A program made the translations under genes and the position numbers. A stretch of DNA of 64,000 nucleotides from assembly GCF_003334255.1 (NCBI RefSeq), contig NZ_QOWU01000001.1; one strand, given 5' to 3'. This document shows positions 172 to 13,189 of this stretch, piece by piece. Under the pieces are notes generated by a model that was not told the DNA's origin, searched no databases, and was given only the letters and a program-made list of their open reading frames with translations. This stretch comes from Escherichia coli. Lineage in GTDB: Bacteria > Pseudomonadota > Gammaproteobacteria > Enterobacterales > Enterobacteriaceae. The first letter of the stretch is position 1. The number at the start of each line of letters is the position of its first letter.

Positions 172-830
172 ACTTAACTCCACTGTCACACTTAACTCCC
201 TTTCCCTTATTGGAATGCAGAGAAATAATCCTGAAGAATATGATTTATCATGCATATAAAATAAGAAAAAGCAAAATGAGTAAAATTCGGAAAACATAAA
301 GATACGGGTTCTGATAAAAACAGAATCCATTGCCGTGGAATGAGTCATTTACCACAGCATAATAATCCATAATGTTTTTGTTGCGAAAACAATCTAATCA
401 TAACTACCGCGAATACTCAATCATCTACAAAATGGATTAAATGTGCTTATTTAATAATTAATTTATATATTTAATGCATTAATTCTTAACATTAATTGAT
501 CAATAATATTCACCAAATCAATATCAAAAAAAATCGCAAAACATATAATTCAATACAAATCATCAGGATAGGTTTTGCAACGCGTGCATTTTGTCCCCTT
601 TTTCCTCGTTGATTAGATGCAAAAATTTATGCTGAAATATGTCAACCGATGAAAAGCGTCGGTAGTTAAGCAGAAATTAATATCGCTTACTTTAACCACC
701 GCAGCACAATTAGCTAATTTTACGGATGCAGAACTCACGCTGGCGGGACGTTTTTATTGCGTCAGGGTTGACATCCGTTTTTGTATCCAGTAACTCTAAA
801 AGCATATCGCATTCATCTGGAGCTGATTTA
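172..830. promoter_or_regulatory. AT-rich leuO-leuL divergent intergenic region containing the leuLABCD promoter (-35 TTGACA at 768..773)
   Basis: Very AT-rich tract between divergent leuO and leuL; TTGACA at 768-773 with a 17-bp spacer to TAACTC just upstream of leuL. Confidence 0.55.
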
Positions 831-917
831 ATGACTCACATCGTTCGCTTTATCGGTCTACTACTACTAAACGCATCTTCTTTGCGCGGTAGACGAGTGA
901 GCGGCATCCAGCATTAA
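831..917 (+). CDS. leuL: leu operon leader peptide (28 aa, four consecutive Leu codons CTA)
   Basis: [28 protein letters not shown] is the last 28 codons of ORF 726..917; run of four CTA Leu codons; followed by an attenuator hairpin. Confidence 0.9.
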
Positions 918-940
918 GCCAGCACGCAGTCAAACAAAAA

Positions 941-967
941 ACCCGCGCCATTGCGCGGGTTTTTTTA
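941..967 (+). terminator. leu attenuator, rho-independent terminator
   Basis: GC hairpin acccgcgcc-attg-cgcgggt followed by a T7 run, between leuL and leuA. Confidence 0.85.
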
Positions 968-3674: not shown

Positions 3675-5691
<2,017 letters not shown>

Positions 5692-5704
5692 TCCCCTTGC
5701 CCGG

Positions 5705-5735
5705 TCAAATGACCGGGCTTTCCGCTATCGTCCAC
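5705..5735. terminator. Bidirectional hairpin between convergent leuD and setA
   Basis: cccggtcaaatgaccggg hairpin located between the two convergent stop codons. Confidence 0.5.
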
Positions 5736-5739
5736 GTCA

Positions 5740-6918
5740 TCAAACGTCTTTAACCTTTGCGGTTAAAAATAATGCGACAACAGAAATAACCGCAATTACC
5801 CAGTAGACAGCAAAGTGCCCCCAACTTTGTGCAATTGCTCCCTGAATAACGCCAGCCAGAATTACCCCGGTAGAAATACTGTTAGTAAATAAGGTGGTAG
5901 CTGCCCCCGCTCTTCCAGGCATTAAATCCTGAAACCATAGCATCCCAATACCCGCAACAATGCCGATAAATACAGCGTTAAAAAGTTGCAGCGTCATCAA
6001 CGCCATACGGCTATTAAAGAAAATCAATCCGGTGTAAAACAGTACTCCTGCCGCCACTGCTATGACCATCATTCGCCGCTTACCATAACGTTTGACATAG
6101 TAGCCAGCCAGAATCATTGCTGGTATTTCCAGTCCAGCTGCCGTCCCCATCAGGAAACCCGCCAGTTTGTCTGGCAATCCTAACTCGCTACTGATCCACA
6201 ACGGCATATCAATAATGTACATGGTGTTGCAGGTCCACATTAACGTCGAGGCGACAAATAACATCCGTACGTTACTATCCTGCCAGCCACCTTGCATTGA
6301 TAAAGCATTTTCCGACGGCAGTTCTACCCGCGCCACAGACGGAAGCATAAATGCAATCAATACCAGACTGAGTGTGAATATCCCGGCGGCAATCGAAAAC
6401 ATCACCGTAAAGCCGTAATTCAACGCCAGCATAAAGGCCAACGGTGGACCGATAACCCATGCCAGAGAAAGCTGCGCACGCATCACCGAGCTAAACATCA
6501 CCACTTCTCGCGCCGAGTTATCCGCATATTCCCGCGCCAGAGCAAATAACTGTGGCATTGCCGTATTGGCCAGAGATGCCAGAAGCACACCACAGGTGAT
6601 AAGCGTCAGATAATGACGATTAAATGCAAACAATAGCGCATTGCCGATAGCCATCAAACAGCAAAATATAATCAGTTTTCGCCGATCGCCCTGACTGTCA
6701 GAACGTTTTGCCAACCAGAGGCTTACGCCGATCCCAGCAATAGCATTCACCGTATAAAAGAGGCCGATCCAGAAAGGTTGCGCGCCAACCTCACGACTCA
6801 GAAATAAGCTCAATGTAGGAGCCTGTAGCGCCCCGGCCACCCCCATCATAAAAGCGACCAGCATAAATGCCGCGTAAACACCGTTCATACGGCGAGCCAT
6901 CGTCATTATCCAGATCAT
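5740..6918 (-). CDS. setA: MFS sugar efflux transporter SetA
   Basis: 392-aa polytopic membrane ORF; immediately downstream of sgrS/sgrT on the same strand. Confidence 0.93.
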   Translation of the reverse strand: MIWIMTMARRMNGVYAAFMLVAFMMGVAGALQAPTLSLFLSREVGAQPFWIGLFYTVNAIAGIGVSLWLAKRSDSQGDRRKLIIFCCLMAIGNALLFAFNRHYLTLITCGVLLASLANTAMPQLFALAREYADNSAREVVMFSSVMRAQLSLAWVIGPPLAFMLALNYGFTVMFSIAAGIFTLSLVLIAFMLPSVARVELPSENALSMQGGWQDSNVRMLFVASTLMWTCNTMYIIDMPLWISSELGLPDKLAGFLMGTAAGLEIPAMILAGYYVKRYGKRRMMVIAVAAGVLFYTGLIFFNSRMALMTLQLFNAVFIGIVAGIGMLWFQDLMPGRAGAATTLFTNSISTGVILAGVIQGAIAQSWGHFAVYWVIAVISVVALFLTAKVKDV

Positions 6919-6945
6919 ACGTTCCCTTTTTAGCGCGGCGAGAAT

Positions 6946-7172
6946 AAAAAAAACCAGCAGGTATAATCTGCTGGCGGGTGATTTTACACCAATACTCAGT
7001 CACACATGATGCAGGCAAGTCAACTTTCAGAATTGCGGTCATCCCACTGCATCAGTCCTTCAAGCATGGTTAATCGTTGTGGGACGCTTAACCAACGCAA
7101 CCAGCACAACTTCGCTGTCGCGGTAAAATAGTGCTGATAAAACTGACGCATGGGGCACCCCCTTGCTTCATC
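6946..7172 (-). ncRNA. sgrS: SgrS small RNA (dual-function: base-pairing sRNA and sgrT mRNA)
   Basis: Minus-strand sequence from 7172 reads GATGAAGCAAGGGGGTGCCCCATGCG...; 3' end is a ccagcagattatacctgctgg hairpin plus T8 at 6974..6946. Confidence 0.88.
7020..7151 (-). CDS. sgrT: SgrT small protein (43 aa) encoded within SgrS
   Basis: MRQFYQHYFTATAKLCWLRWLSVPQRLTMLEGLMQWDDRNSES is the C-terminal 43 codons of ORF 7020..7319. Confidence 0.85.
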   Translation of the reverse strand: MRQFYQHYFTATAKLCWLRWLSVPQRLTMLEGLMQWDDRNSES

Positions 7173-7239
7173 GTTAGGAATTATTGACTTAATATAGGGA
7201 AAATAAAATTGCTGTCTTTTGCACAGGAGTTCCCCTTTT

Positions 7240-8895
7240 ATGCCATCTGCTCGTCTGCAACAACAGTTCATCCGCCTGTGGCAATGCTGCGAGGGTAAAT
7301 CGCAGGACACAACGCTCAACGAACTGGCAGCGTTATTGAGCTGCTCGCGTCGTCATATGCGCACCCTGCTCAACACCATGCAGGATCGCGGCTGGCTGAC
7401 GTGGGAAGCGGAAGTCGGGCGCGGTAAACGCTCGCGTCTGACATTCCTCTATACCGGGCTGGCGCTTCAGCAACAGCGGGCGGAAGACCTGCTGGAGCAG
7501 GATCGTATCGATCAACTGGTGCAGTTGGTTGGCGACAAAGCGACTGTGCGGCAAATGCTGGTTTCTCATCTGGGCCGCAGCTTCCGCCAGGGGCGGCACA
7601 TCCTGCGCGTGCTCTACTATCGTCCGTTGCGTAATCTGCTACCTGGCAGCGCATTGCGCCGTTCCGAAACCCATATCGCCCGGCAAATCTTCAGTTCGCT
7701 AACGCGCATAAATGAGGAAAATGGGGAACTGGAAGCAGACATCGCCCACCACTGGCAGCAAATTTCACCGCTTCACTGGCGTTTCTTTTTGCGTCCAGGA
7801 GTCCATTTTCACCATGGTCGTGAACTGGAAATGGACGATGTGATCGCCTCTTTAAAACGAATCAATACGCTGCCGCTCTATTCGCATATTGCTGACATTG
7901 TGTCGCCGACGCCCTGGACGCTGGATATCCATCTCACGCAACCGGACCGCTGGTTACCGTTACTGCTGGGGCAAGTTCCGGCGATGATCCTGCCGCGCGA
8001 ATGGGAAACCCTCAGTAACTTTGCCAGCCATCCCATCGGCACCGGTCCGTATGCGGTGATTCGCAACAGCACCAATCAACTGAAAATTCAGGCATTCGAT
8101 GACTTCTTCGGTTACCGGGCATTAATCGACGAAGTTAACGTCTGGGTTCTGCCGGAAATTGCCGACGAGCCAGCCGGAGGGCTGATGCTAAAAGGTCCAC
8201 AGGGCGAGGAAAAAGAGATTGAAAGCCGCCTGGAGGAAGGTTGCTACTATTTACTGTTCGACAGCCGCACCCATCGCGGGGCGAATCAGCAAGTCAGGGA
8301 CTGGGTAAGCTATGTGCTTTCTCCAACTAATCTGGTCTATTTCGCTGAGGAACAGTACCAGCAACTGTGGTTCCCGGCTTATGGACTGCTCCCCCGTTGG
8401 CACCATGCCCGCACCATAAAGAGCGAAAAACCGGCTGGCCTGGAAAGCCTCACCCTAACCTTTTATCAGGATCACAGTGAGCATCGGGTGATTGCCGGGA
8501 TCATGCAGCAGATTCTGGCAAGTCACCAGGTCACGCTGAAAATCAAAGAGATCGACTACGATCAGTGGCATACAGGAGAGATCGAAAGTGATATCTGGCT
8601 AAACAGCGCCAACTTTACCCTGCCGCTGGACTTCTCTGTTTTCGCACATTTATGCGAAGTGCCACTGCTACAACATTGCATTCCCATTGACTGGCAAGCC
8701 GACGCTGCTCGCTGGCGCAATGGCGAGATGAATCTGGCGAACTGGTGCCAGCAACTGGTCGCCAGCAAAGCGATGGTGCCATTATTGCACCACTGGCTGA
8801 TCATTCAGGGGCAACGCAGTATGCGCGGCCTGCGCATGAATACCCTCGGCTGGTTCGATTTTAAATCAGCGTGGTTTGCGCCACCGGATCCATGA
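7240..8895 (+). CDS. sgrR: Transcriptional activator SgrR (HTH plus solute-binding-like domain)
   Basis: 551 aa from ATG at 7240 ([15 protein letters not shown]...); divergent from sgrS. Confidence 0.93.
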
Positions 8896-8924
8896 TTGCT
8901 GGTTGATAACAAAATCACTACACT

Positions 8925-9015
8925 AACGCCGTTCTCAACGGGGTGCCACGCGTACGCGTGCGCTGAGAAAATACCCGTCGAACCTGATCCGGATAACGCC
9001 GGCGAAGGGATTTGA
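8925..9015 (+). promoter_or_regulatory. sroA: TPP (THI-box) riboswitch in the thiBPQ leader
   Basis: Conserved THI-box elements ggggtgcc ... gctgaga ... accc ... aacctgatccggataacgccggcgaaggga directly upstream of thiB. Confidence 0.8.
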
Positions 9016-9058
9016 GGCTCCTTCTCAAGTCCTTTGCCACTCTTTTTTGAGGTGCAAA

Positions 9059-10042
9059 GTGTTAAAAAAATGTCTGCCCCTGCTGTTGCTGTGCACAGCG
9101 CCCGTTTTCGCTAAACCCGTTCTGACTGTTTATACCTACGATTCCTTCGCCGCCGACTGGGGGCCTGGTCCGGTGGTTAAAAAAGCCTTTGAAGCCGACT
9201 GTAATTGCGAACTGAAACTGGTGGCGCTGGAAGATGGCGTTTCGCTTCTCAACCGTCTACGGATGGAAGGCAAAAACAGTAAAGCCGATGTGGTGCTGGG
9301 GCTGGATAACAACCTGTTAGACGCCGCCAGTAAAACCGGACTGTTTGCCAAAAGCGGTGTGGCAGCGGATGCCGTTAACGTTCCCGGCGGCTGGAATAAT
9401 GACACTTTCGTACCGTTTGATTATGGCTACTTCGCCTTCGTTTATGACAAGAACAAACTGAAAAACCCGCCACAAAGCCTGAAAGAACTGGTTGAGAGCG
9501 ATCAAAACTGGCGGGTGATTTATCAGGATCCGCGCACCAGTACACCGGGGCTGGGTCTGTTGCTATGGATGCAAAAAGTCTATGGCGATGACGCCCCACA
9601 AGCCTGGCAGAAACTGGCGAAGAAAACGGTCACGGTCACCAAAGGCTGGAGCGAAGCCTACGGCCTGTTTTTAAAAGGTGAAAGCGATCTGGTACTGAGT
9701 TACACCACCTCTCCGGCTTATCACATTCTCGAAGAGAAGAAAGATAACTACGCCGCCGCGAACTTCAGCGAAGGTCACTATCTGCAAGTGGAAGTCGCCG
9801 CCCGCACCGCTGCCAGCAAGCAGCCGGAGCTGGCGCAAAAATTCCTCCAGTTTATGGTTTCTCCGGCTTTCCAGAATGCGATCCCAACCGGCAACTGGAT
9901 GTATCCGGTGGCAAACGTCACGCTGCCTGCCGGTTTTGAAAAATTGACCAAACCCGCAACCACGTTGGAGTTCACGCCAGCCGAAGTGGCGGCACAACGT
10001 CAGGCATGGATTAGCGAATGGCAACGCGCCGTCAGCCGTTAA
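9059..10042 (+). CDS. thiB: Thiamine ABC transporter periplasmic binding protein (GTG start)
   Basis: 327 aa from GTG at 9059 (MLKKCLPLLLLCTAPVFA, signal peptide); the ORF track extends upstream to a TTG at 9047. Confidence 0.92.
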   Translation: MLKKCLPLLLLCTAPVFAKPVLTVYTYDSFAADWGPGPVVKKAFEADCNCELKLVALEDGVSLLNRLRMEGKNSKADVVLGLDNNLLDAASKTGLFAKSGVAADAVNVPGGWNNDTFVPFDYGYFAFVYDKNKLKNPPQSLKELVESDQNWRVIYQDPRTSTPGLGLLLWMQKVYGDDAPQAWQKLAKKTVTVTKGWSEAYGLFLKGESDLVLSYTTSPAYHILEEKKDNYAAANFSEGHYLQVEVAARTAASKQPELAQKFLQFMVSPAFQNAIPTGNWMYPVANVTLPAGFEKLTKPATTLEFTPAEVAAQRQAWISEWQRAVSR

Positions 10043-11629
10043 TTCCCGGCTGGTTAATTCCAGGTGTAAGCGCCACCACGCTGGTGGTAGCGGTTGCGCT
10101 GGCGGCGTTTCTCGCCCTGTGGTGGAACGCGCCGCAGGATGACTGGGTGGCAGTCTGGCAGGACAGCTATCTGTGGCATGTGGTGCGCTTCTCCTTCTGG
10201 CAGGCGTTTCTCTCGGCACTGCTCTCTGTCATACCCGCGATATTCCTCGCCCGCGCGCTCTATCGCAGGCGCTTTCCGGGTCGGCTGGCGCTGTTGCGTC
10301 TGTGTGCAATGACCTTGATCCTCCCGGTGTTGGTCGCTGTTTTCGGCATTCTTAGCGTCTATGGTCGCCAGGGCTGGCTGGCAACACTCTGCCAATTCGC
10401 TCGGTCTGGAGTGGACCTTTTCGCCCTACGGCCTGCAAGGTATTTTGCTGGCCCATGTGTTTTTTAATCTGCCGATGGCGAGCCGCTTATTACTCCAGGC
10501 ACTGGAAAACATCCCCGGCGAACAGCGTCAACTTGCCGCCCAGCTTGGGATGCGTAGCTGGCATTTTTTCCGCTTCGTCGAATGGCCGTGGTTACGGCGA
10601 CAAATCCCGCCGGTTGCTGCGCTTATCTTTATGCTCTGTTTCGCCAGCTTCGCCACCGTGCTATCGCTGGGGGGCGGTCCGCAGGCGACCACTATCGAGC
10701 TGGCAATCTATCAGGCGCTGAGTTACGACTACGATCCTGCCCGCGCGGCAATGCTGGCGCTGCTCCAGATGGTGTGCTGCCTCGGGCTGGTGCTGTTGAG
10801 TCAGCGATTGAGTAAGGCCATTGCGCCCGGCACCACGCTGCTGCAAGGCTGGCGCGACCCGGACGATCGTCTGCATAGCCGCATTTGCGACACGGTGTTA
10901 ATTGTGCTGGCGCTGCTGCTGTTGCTGCCACCGTTACTGGCGGTGATCGTCGATGGGGTAAATCGCCAGTTGCCGGAAGTGCTGGCACAACCGGTGCTGT
11001 GGCAGGCGCTGTGGACCTCGTTGCGTATTGCGCTGGCGGCAGGTGTATTGTGCGTAGTGCTGACCATGATGCTGCTATGGAGCAGTCGCGAACTGCGGGC
11101 GCGGCAGAAAATGCTGGCGGGTCAGGTGCTGGAGATGAGCGGCATGTTGATCCTCGCCATGCCGGGGATTGTGCTGGCTACCGGCTTCTTTTTACTGCTC
11201 AACAACACTATCGGCCTGCCACAATCTGCTGACGGCATTGTGATTTTCACCAATGCGTTAATGGCGATCCCTTATGCGCTGAAAGTGCTGGAAAACCCGA
11301 TGCGCGATATCACCGCCCGCTACAGCATGTTATGTCAGTCGCTGGGGATTGAAGGCTGGTCACGCTTAAAAGTGGTGGAGCTGCGCGCCCTGAAACGTCC
11401 ACTGGCGCAGGCGCTGGCCTTTGCATGCGTGCTGTCGATTGGTGATTTTGGCGTGGTGGCGTTGTTCGGTAACGATGATTTCCGCACCCTGCCGTTTTAT
11501 CTCTACCAGCAAATTGGCTCCTATCGCAGCCAGGACGGTGCGGTCACCGCGTTAATTCTGCTGCTGCTCTGTTTTCTGCTGTTTACCGTGATTGAAAAAC
11601 TACCGGGGCGAAATGTTAAAACTGACTGA
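10018..11629 (+). pseudogene. thiP: Thiamine ABC transporter permease ThiP, reading frame broken by an apparent +1 frameshift near 10396
   Basis: Two overlapping ORFs in different frames (10018..10467 and 10361..11629); the span is 1612 bp, not a multiple of 3; both carry ThiP-like sequence. Confidence 0.7.
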
Positions 11630-12311
11630 TATCACCTGGCTTTACCACCATTTGCCGATGCGTTTTAGCTTAACGGTGGAACGCGGCGAGCAGGTGGCGA
11701 TCCTCGGGCCAAGCGGCGCGGGTAAAAGTACCCTGCTGAATTTGATCGCCGGTTTTCTGACGCCAGCCAGCGGTTCGCTGACTATCGATGGCGTAGATCA
11801 CACAACTATGCCGCCGTCACGCCGTCCGGTGTCGATGCTGTTTCAGGAGAACAACCTGTTCAGCCACCTGACGGTCGCACAGAACATCGGGCTGGGGCTA
11901 AATCCGGGATTGAAACTGAACGCGGTACAGCAGGGGAAAATGCACGCTATCGCCCGCCAGATGGGGATTGATAATTTAATGGCGCGGTTACCGGGCGAGC
12001 TTTCCGGCGGTCAGCGACAGCGAGTGGCGTTAGCGCGTTGTCTGGTACGCGAACAGCCGATTTTATTGCTCGATGAACCGTTCTCTGCGCTCGATCCGGC
12101 GTTACGTCAGGAGATGTTGACGCTGGTGAGCACGAGCTGCCAGCAGCAAAAAATGACGCTATTGATGGTGTCGCACAGCGTGGAAGATGCGGCGCGGATC
12201 GCCACGCGCTCGGTAGTAGTCGCCGACGGGCGCATCGCCTGGCAGGGTATGACCAATGAGTTGTTGAGCGGTAAGGCGAGTGCTTCGGCACTATTGGGGA
12301 TTACGGGTTAG
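11613..12311 (+). CDS. thiQ: Thiamine ABC transporter ATP-binding protein
   Basis: 232 aa from ATG at 11613; Walker [10 protein letters not shown] and ABC signature LSGGQRQR; overlaps the thiP 3' end by 17 nt. Confidence 0.94.
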
Positions 12312-12318
12312 TATGCAC

Positions 12319-12404
<86 letters not shown>

Positions 12405-12424
12405 AACCCGCACAAGACTATCTC

Positions 12425-13189
12425 CTAAACCCCAACCACTTTACGCAAAATATCGATATACACCGGCATCAACGGGTGGCGAATTAACACCACCAGCGCC
12501 ACCACGCCGATGGCAGAAATCAACGGCGTCAGCCACAACAAACGACCGCGGGACAAATAATGACTCAAACGGTCAGTCGCTTTACCGCTGCGCCATAACC
12601 GCCAGCACAGCCAGCCACCAACCCACAAAAACACCGCTGTTGCCAGCAGCAACCATTTAAACTCACCGCTCTGCATTCCGGCAGGAATATCGATCGCCGC
12701 GCCCGCCAGAATCCCTGGCAGGAAGTAAAACGGCGGCCACAGCAGGCAGCCGATAATATTCGGCGTAATAAATTTAGCCACCGGCAGATCCAGCATTCCC
12801 GCCACCATTGGCACCAGCGGACGCGTCGGGCCAACAAAACGACCGACCAGAATGGTGAACATGCTGTGTTGATGCAACGCATGTTCAGTTTTATCAAGTA
12901 GTGCTTTGTTTTTCTTCAGAAATGACCAGCGATGCAACGGCTTTTTAAAACGCCAACCCAGCCAGAAAGAAATCCAGTCGCCCATCAAGCAGCCAATAAT
13001 CCCTGCCAGCCAGGCGTGCCAGAAACTTAACTCGCCGCTGCCAATCAGCGCTCCCAGCCCCGCCATCAGCACCGTACCGGGTAGAATCAAACCGACCAGC
13101 GCCAGCGACTCCAGAAAGGCCACCAACACCACCGCCATCAATGAATACACGGTGGATTGGGTAATAAAGTGTTCCAGCAATGCTTGCAT
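12425..13189 (-). CDS. yabI: DedA-family inner membrane protein
   Basis: 254-aa membrane ORF; position between thiQ and araC. Confidence 0.9.
   Translation of the reverse strand: MQALLEHFITQSTVYSLMAVVLVAFLESLALVGLILPGTVLMAGLGALIGSGELSFWHAWLAGIIGCLMGDWISFWLGWRFKKPLHRWSFLKKNKALLDKTEHALHQHSMFTILVGRFVGPTRPLVPMVAGMLDLPVAKFITPNIIGCLLWPPFYFLPGILAGAAIDIPAGMQSGEFKWLLLATAVFLWVGGWLCWRLWRSGKATDRLSHYLSRGRLLWLTPLISAIGVVALVVLIRHPLMPVYIDILRKVVGV

Follow-up and report, generated by a model that had tools for sequence, protein, structure and literature searches.

We identified positions 6946..7172 on the minus strand of the window (the whole 64,000-nucleotide stretch of Escherichia coli DNA analyzed here) as sgrS on the chromosome of a K-12 strain of E. 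coli, with the full mechanism set out below (probability about 0.98). Identity, anatomy, seed complementarity and conservation pattern are established for this SgrS. The 227-nt small RNA begins with a G at 7172 and ends in the U-run at 6946; read from 7172, the minus strand gives GATGAAGCAAGGGGGTGCCCC, and a longer reading downward from the same position gives GATGAAGCAAGGGGGTGCCCCATG... An Rfam scan assigned the element to the SgrS family (RF00534) with 228.8 bits (gathering score 37; E = 2.9e-65), over model positions 1-232 of 232 and with boundaries falling exactly at 6946..7172. A preliminary description had placed SgrS on the minus strand between setA and sgrR and had proposed a covariance-model search as a check. 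Its placement was confirmed by this full-length match, by identity at 227/227 positions with the annotated ncRNA sgrS of E. coli K-12 MG1655 (b4577, 77367..77593), and by protein profiles for the flanking genes. All the elements it described lie at the coordinates it gave. Compared with MG1655 sgrS and sgrT (b4662), the boundaries, neighbours, seed, terminator and SgrT were the same, with no difference within the element. Reference identity and the full-length Rfam match settle what the RNA is, and nothing in the analysis contradicts this identification. The whole RNA folded with z = -3.43 relative to shuffled sequences.

SgrS and SgrT are an already known system, as the preliminary description had recognized, and the copy here is ordinary and identical to the reference allele. 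The window copy matters little beyond this, since it is a textbook dual-function sRNA in the very background where it was characterized; its value is that of a positive control, in which raw sequence sufficed to locate the sRNA, the embedded ORF, the seed and the terminator with single-base accuracy. The refinements described below, namely a moderate and leaky terminator, a translation-damping 5' hairpin and two E. coli haplotypes, are all published already.

For the mechanism, the parts concerning induction by SgrR, dependence on Hfq, decay through RNase E, the action of SgrT on PtsG and readthrough were taken from the literature (PMC4021124, PMC2760806, PMC2760817, PMC4509938, PMC5558911). 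Under glucose-phosphate stress, SgrR would activate the sgrS promoter, with its weak -35 element, to yield a 227-nt Hfq-binding RNA. Nucleotides 168-187 of SgrS would then pair with ptsG mRNA at its ribosome-binding site, and also with manXYZ, yigL and other targets. Such pairing is expected to block translation and to trigger RNase E-dependent decay, while yigL mRNA would instead be stabilised. The two 3' hairpins and the terminal U8 would form the Hfq-binding module, and the 5' part of SgrS would serve as mRNA for the 43-aa SgrT, a post-translational inhibitor of the PtsG transporter whose output in the K-12 allele would be kept low by the GGGGGUGCCCC hairpin over the Shine-Dalgarno (SD) sequence. 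Terminated transcripts would provide functional SgrS, and readthrough transcripts would extend into setA and fail to bind Hfq. SgrR-dependent induction by glucose-phosphate stress and Hfq- and RNase E-dependent repression of ptsG have been demonstrated experimentally for the identical K-12 sequence (PMC4021124, PMC4509938).

The sgrS locus and its promoter

The gene order around the element, thiB / TPP riboswitch / sgrR / sgrS-sgrT / setA / leuD, is the same as in MG1655, and sgrS lies divergent from sgrR, between sgrR and setA/leuD. The activator gene sgrR (7240..8895, plus strand) matched the SgrR equivalog model NF010149 of NCBIfam with 1126.8 bits (cutoff 476) and was annotated as such in all loci fetched. 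On the other side, the sugar efflux transporter gene setA (5740..6918, minus strand) was supported by TIGR00899 (602.6 bits) and by annotation; it starts 27 nt past the 3' end of SgrS and is followed in the gene order by leuD (5086..5691, plus strand). Over 7,962 bp around sgrS, window positions 4539..12500 correspond to MG1655 72040..80000 in reverse, without a mismatch and with one 1-bp indel as the only difference. Upstream of thiB, a TPP riboswitch (RF00059, 65.9 bits) was found at 8929..9028 on the plus strand, where the MG1655 label is the SroA small RNA.

The sgrS promoter lies on the minus strand in the divergent sgrR-sgrS intergenic region (7173..7239), which is 99% identical between the E. 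coli haplotypes and has been described as highly conserved (PMC4021124); the dependence of sgrS on SgrR is likewise published (PMC4021124). Reading the sequence against the annotated +1, we assigned a putative -10 hexamer AATAAT (7185..7180), ending 7 nt before this +1, and a poor -35 hexamer TTTTAT (7208..7203). A generic sigma-70 consensus scan found no suitably spaced promoter for the annotated sgrS +1. The one minus-strand site that it gave, AAGACA and TATATT separated by 16 nt (7218..7191), was rejected as the sgrS promoter because it ends 19 nt before that position. The absent sigma-70 match and the poor -35 would be consistent with an activator-dependent promoter.

Base-pairing region and 3' module

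The base-pairing (seed) region GUGUGACUGAGUAUUGGUGU corresponds to SgrS nt 168-187 (6986..7005, minus strand), which formed the best duplex with ptsG. When full-length SgrS was run with RNAduplex against ptsG -110..+60, a long-looped and meaningless duplex was obtained, equalled by 293 of 500 shuffles; a sliding-window scan was substituted for this reason, in which each 24-nt window of SgrS was compared with MG1655 ptsG -45..+12 and with 300 shuffled targets. Nucleotides 168-187 paired with ptsG -28..-9 through 4+8+5 bp spanning the SD sequence, at -27.8 kcal/mol. The best duplexes with shuffled targets averaged -17.2 kcal/mol (sd 2.5), 0/300 of them reached the observed value, and the duplex energy profile along SgrS peaked only at nt 161-187. 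Hence, SgrS has the hallmark of its family, a conserved single-stranded stretch in the 3' part that is complementary to the region where ptsG translation starts, and the scan reproduced the published 5-8-4 pairing pattern (PMC2760817).

Downstream of the seed, the last 67 nt folded into a small hairpin, the terminator hairpin and the U-tail, in that order. The small hairpin GGUG-UAAAAU-CACC (nt 183-196; 6977..6990, minus strand) was present in both the MFE and the centroid folds (-3.8 kcal/mol). The Rho-independent terminator (6946..6975, minus strand) has the stem CCAGCAG/CTGCTGG at 6974..6954 followed by eight T at 6953..6946; the terminator scan added one G-U pair, which extends the stem to 6975..6953 and gives 8 pairs, 5 of them GC (GCCAGCAG / CUGCUGGU), around a 7-nt loop. 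By sequence, the 3' end presents a putative Hfq module, with a terminator of at least seven U (U8 here) preceded by a small hairpin, an arrangement described as the Hfq-binding module of SgrS (PMC4021124, PMC4509938). The 3' poly(U) tail is required for Hfq binding (PMC4509938, PMC5558911), which for SgrS reportedly needs 7 or more U (PMC5558911). Both seed and terminator are thus intact, as the preliminary description had expected, since the seed-ptsG duplex as well as the hairpin and U8 were found.

The description of this terminator as strong needs tempering. The hairpin at 6954..6974 and the T-run are present, and the hairpin has an energy of about -12.6 kcal/mol (published value -11.3 kcal/mol; PMC4509938). 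Frequent readthrough and a moderate hairpin have been published (PMC4509938, PMC5558911), the sgrS-setA operon and its readthrough were seen by Northern blot, the readthrough RNAs failing to bind Hfq (PMC4509938), and moderate hairpin strength is reported to give the full-length U-tail (PMC5558911). Given the calculated energy, the published leakiness into setA and a hairpin strength tuned to the U-tail, this terminator is better described as canonical by sequence but moderate and functionally tuned.

sgrT and its 5' hairpin

The sgrT coding sequence occupies 7020..7151 on the minus strand (SgrS nt 22-153), with an ATG at 7151, 43 codons and a stop at 7022..7020, and translates into MRQFYQHYFTATAKLCWLRWLSVPQRLTMLEGLMQWDDRNSES. 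The SgrT product matched Pfam PF15894 (E = 3.5e-13, 49.5 bits), with residues 3-37 aligned on model positions 1-36 of 46; this match and the translation bear out the 43-codon sgrT that had been read at 7151..7020. No NCBIfam model matched SgrT, which we attribute to a gap in that library because Pfam does match. The gene was annotated by PGAP and has b4662 as its MG1655 counterpart. Overall, the 5' part of SgrS holds an intact ORF of about 40 aa with a start codon and a ribosome-binding site. That site, a G-rich SD sequence (AAGGGGG) 6-12 nt upstream of the ATG, is nevertheless enclosed in a GC hairpin.

This hairpin is formed by the 5' inverted repeat GGGGGUGCCCC (SgrS nt 11-21; 7152..7162, minus strand), read from the sequence as covering the SD region of sgrT. 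The window SgrS is the K-12-type allele, with G at nt 13, and its nt 11-21 form a GC hairpin of 4 bp immediately before the sgrT AUG, with -4.5 kcal/mol when folded alone versus -0.2 kcal/mol for the A13 variant; the hairpin also appeared when the first 40 nt were folded together (MFE structure). The A13 form yields the SD sequence AGGAGG. Wadler and Vanderpool showed genetically that the 5' hairpin suppresses sgrT translation (PMC2760806). As a result, little SgrT is made from the native K-12 RNA, which depends on base pairing; sgrT alone from the native K-12 allele fails to rescue growth, and hairpin-disrupting mutations raise SgrT (PMC2760806). The same authors left open that the hairpin is regulatory and not inactivating (PMC2760806), and K-12 SgrT is active when ectopically expressed or overexpressed (PMC2760806, PMC4021124). 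Since the GGGGGUGCCCC hairpin covers the sgrT ribosome-binding site and reportedly holds down SgrT synthesis, the SgrT arm would be weak in this K-12 allele. The term dual-function, applied earlier to this copy, is right for the SgrS family and needs a qualification here, where the K-12-type hairpin reportedly damps sgrT translation.

Salmonella SgrS, compared by description, resembles the window type in that it is a dual-function RNA whose seed follows the same logic and which carries a terminator/Hfq module (PMC2760806, PMC2760817). It differs in its 40-aa SgrT, in lacking the translation-inhibitory 5' hairpin, so that more SgrT is made, and in a 22-nt spacer between seed and terminator (PMC2760806, PMC2760817).

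Variation across E. coli and alternative readings

A megablast search with the 227 nt found a single sgrS copy in 5400/5426 complete E. coli genomes, and the matches carried an sgrT annotation in every genome inspected. Two haplotypes emerged, one in 3230 genomes, where sgrS matches the window with 99% identity or more, and the other in 2158, where it is 80-90% identical. The second haplotype (CFT073/O157:H7 type) is 88.6% identical to the window sgrS; setA was absent and sgrS adjoined leuD in all five second-haplotype loci fetched. The 88% identity between K-12 and CFT073 and the start-codon mutation of O157:H7 were already published (PMC2760817). Of the 5240 genomes with a match to the first 60 nt, 1417 (~27%) carry exactly the window sequence there, the others differing by at least one base; this difference included A13 in all five sampled loci. 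Two strains that are apparently both Nissle 1917 derivatives, EcN_Sk and SYNB1934, disagree at the 5' end of SgrS, with 100% identity to the K-12-type first 60 nt in the former versus 98.3% (A13) in the latter; engineering, mislabelling or assembly differences could account for this discrepancy.

Differences between the haplotypes are unevenly distributed. The upstream region and nt 1-114 together contain only two, at position -51 and at nt 13 (G to A), whereas 29 differences fall in the 113 columns of nt 115-227. The abrupt divergence from SgrS nt ~115 suggests that a recombination or indel event has its boundary within the gene. None of the 29 differences falls in the seed (nt 164-187) or in the 5' arm of the terminator (nt 198-205), for which the hypergeometric P is about 1e-5 over these 32 columns, a post hoc value that is indicative only, as the choice of blocks was guided in part by the data themselves. 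Identity drops to 69% in the 3' end of sgrT (last 39 nt), 60% in the linker, 40% in the loop and 3' arm of the small hairpin and 29% in the terminator loop. Both haplotypes keep the small hairpin at the same position, with a different 3' arm, as well as the 8-bp terminator stem and the 43-codon sgrT frame, whose C-termini differ. This pattern of variation is the footprint to be expected if seed and terminator are functional and the ORF is translated.

The CFT073/O157:H7-type sgrS therefore shares with the window the 5' 114 nt except nt 13, the seed, the terminator 5' arm and a 43-aa SgrT. It has A13, no 5' hairpin and a better SD sequence, whereas the window has G13 with the hairpin, and its SgrT ends in EELMQWEGSHSDY where the window protein ends in EGLMQWDDRNSES. 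The small-hairpin arm and the terminator loop also differ, and setA is not downstream. Its terminator closes with a G-C pair (G-U in the window) and is followed by only six consecutive T and then C (CTGCTGGCTTTTTTCTTTT; loci L002:2698-2745, L006 and L007), a run below the 7 or more U reported to be needed for Hfq binding of SgrS (PMC5558911), unless termination extends into the later T's. In O157:H7 EDL933, the sgrT start codon is ATT (L006:422-424), as published; PGAP still annotates sgrT as an intact CDS, under the same accession as in ATG strains (WP_001248768.1). In E. coli HS-02 (L003:2522-2652), sgrT is annotated as a frameshifted pseudogene, owing to the loss of 1 nt near nt 110 of SgrS; since both the seed and the terminator stem are intact, this is a natural case in which the protein arm alone was lost.

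Could the window SgrS effectively be a pure riboregulator, its sgrT silenced by the G13 hairpin and kept as a conserved, near-silent remnant, so that dual-function overstates this copy? The GGGGGUGCCCC repeat and its folding energy relative to A13, the scant SgrT made from K-12 SgrS, the lack of growth rescue by native sgrT alone (PMC2760806) and the O157:H7 sgrT with ATT in place of a start codon (sequence here; PMC2760817) all point in this direction. However, the ORF is intact with its ATG, it matches the Pfam SgrT family and its frame is kept across haplotypes, while ectopic K-12 SgrT is active (PMC2760806, PMC4021124) and the hairpin may, according to its authors, be regulatory (PMC2760806). 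We consider the purely riboregulatory reading possible but somewhat unlikely. A related idea, that the G13 hairpin is a regulated switch (responding to temperature, a factor or target pairing) which gates SgrT apart from riboregulation, and not a simple loss-of-function polymorphism, is a long shot in our opinion; were it true, G13 carriers would possess a conditional second arm absent from A13 strains. Alternatively, SgrT could be the C-terminal part of a larger protein. A 99-codon ORF with a TTG start (7020..7319, minus strand) is present in the ORF list in frame with sgrT, with no stop between 7319 and 7151. Its first 56 codons, however, lie upstream of the SgrS 5' end (7172 by both Rfam and the MG1655 annotation), in an extension that crosses the region of the sgrS promoter and lies opposite the first 80 nt of sgrR, and within the 43-aa SgrT the Pfam match spans residues 3-37. 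The long ORF was called in none of the annotated genomes inspected, PGAP giving the 132-nt sgrT in the RefSeq genomes among them. Given these crossed boundaries and the lack of annotation, we rejected it as a gene, the chance that it is one being negligible; the 99-codon ORF is an artefact of ORF listing, as the preliminary description had suspected. The warning given there about the joined frame is factually right, but in the annotated genomes inspected it misled no annotation, PGAP calling the 132-nt sgrT in all of them. An 83-codon ORF (6791..7042) was also rejected as a gene, since it spans promoter, terminator or neighbouring-gene boundaries and is annotated in no genome inspected.

A further alternative concerns the 3' end, where the element might mainly be the 5' leader of an sgrS-setA mRNA and the hairpin an attenuator, not the end of an independent RNA. 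With setA only 27 nt past the U-run, no promoter-like site between them, a hairpin of only moderate stability, and documented readthrough into setA with an sgrS-setA operon (PMC4509938), the arrangement is compatible with this reading. Yet it is the terminated 227-nt RNA that is abundant, bound to Hfq and active, and stress raises termination (PMC4509938). Moreover, about 40% of E. coli genomes (2158/5400) have sgrS without setA downstream, as judged from the fetched loci, which argues that SgrS is independent of setA. We regard a primarily leader role as improbable; it would in any case complement, and not exclude, the main explanation of this element as a K-12 sgrS.

Elsewhere in the window, thiP (10018..11629, plus strand) carries a 1-bp insertion at 10397, an extra T in CCAAT[T]CGC relative to MG1655, which is the sole difference in the 7,962 bp compared. 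Located 3.2 kb from sgrS, the insertion splits thiP into ORFs of 149 aa (10018..10467) and 422 aa (10361..11629). It was found in 0/5426 complete E. coli genomes (best identity 98.4% for a 61-nt query) and could be a sequencing error, a private mutation of a laboratory strain or an introduced change. At gathering level, Rfam also matched naRNA4/CssrE (17780..17845, plus strand; 60.2 bits, barely over the threshold of 59.5), the ES003 sRNA (54884..54936, minus strand; 87.4 bits) and the leucine operon leader (817..966, plus strand; 145.8 bits).
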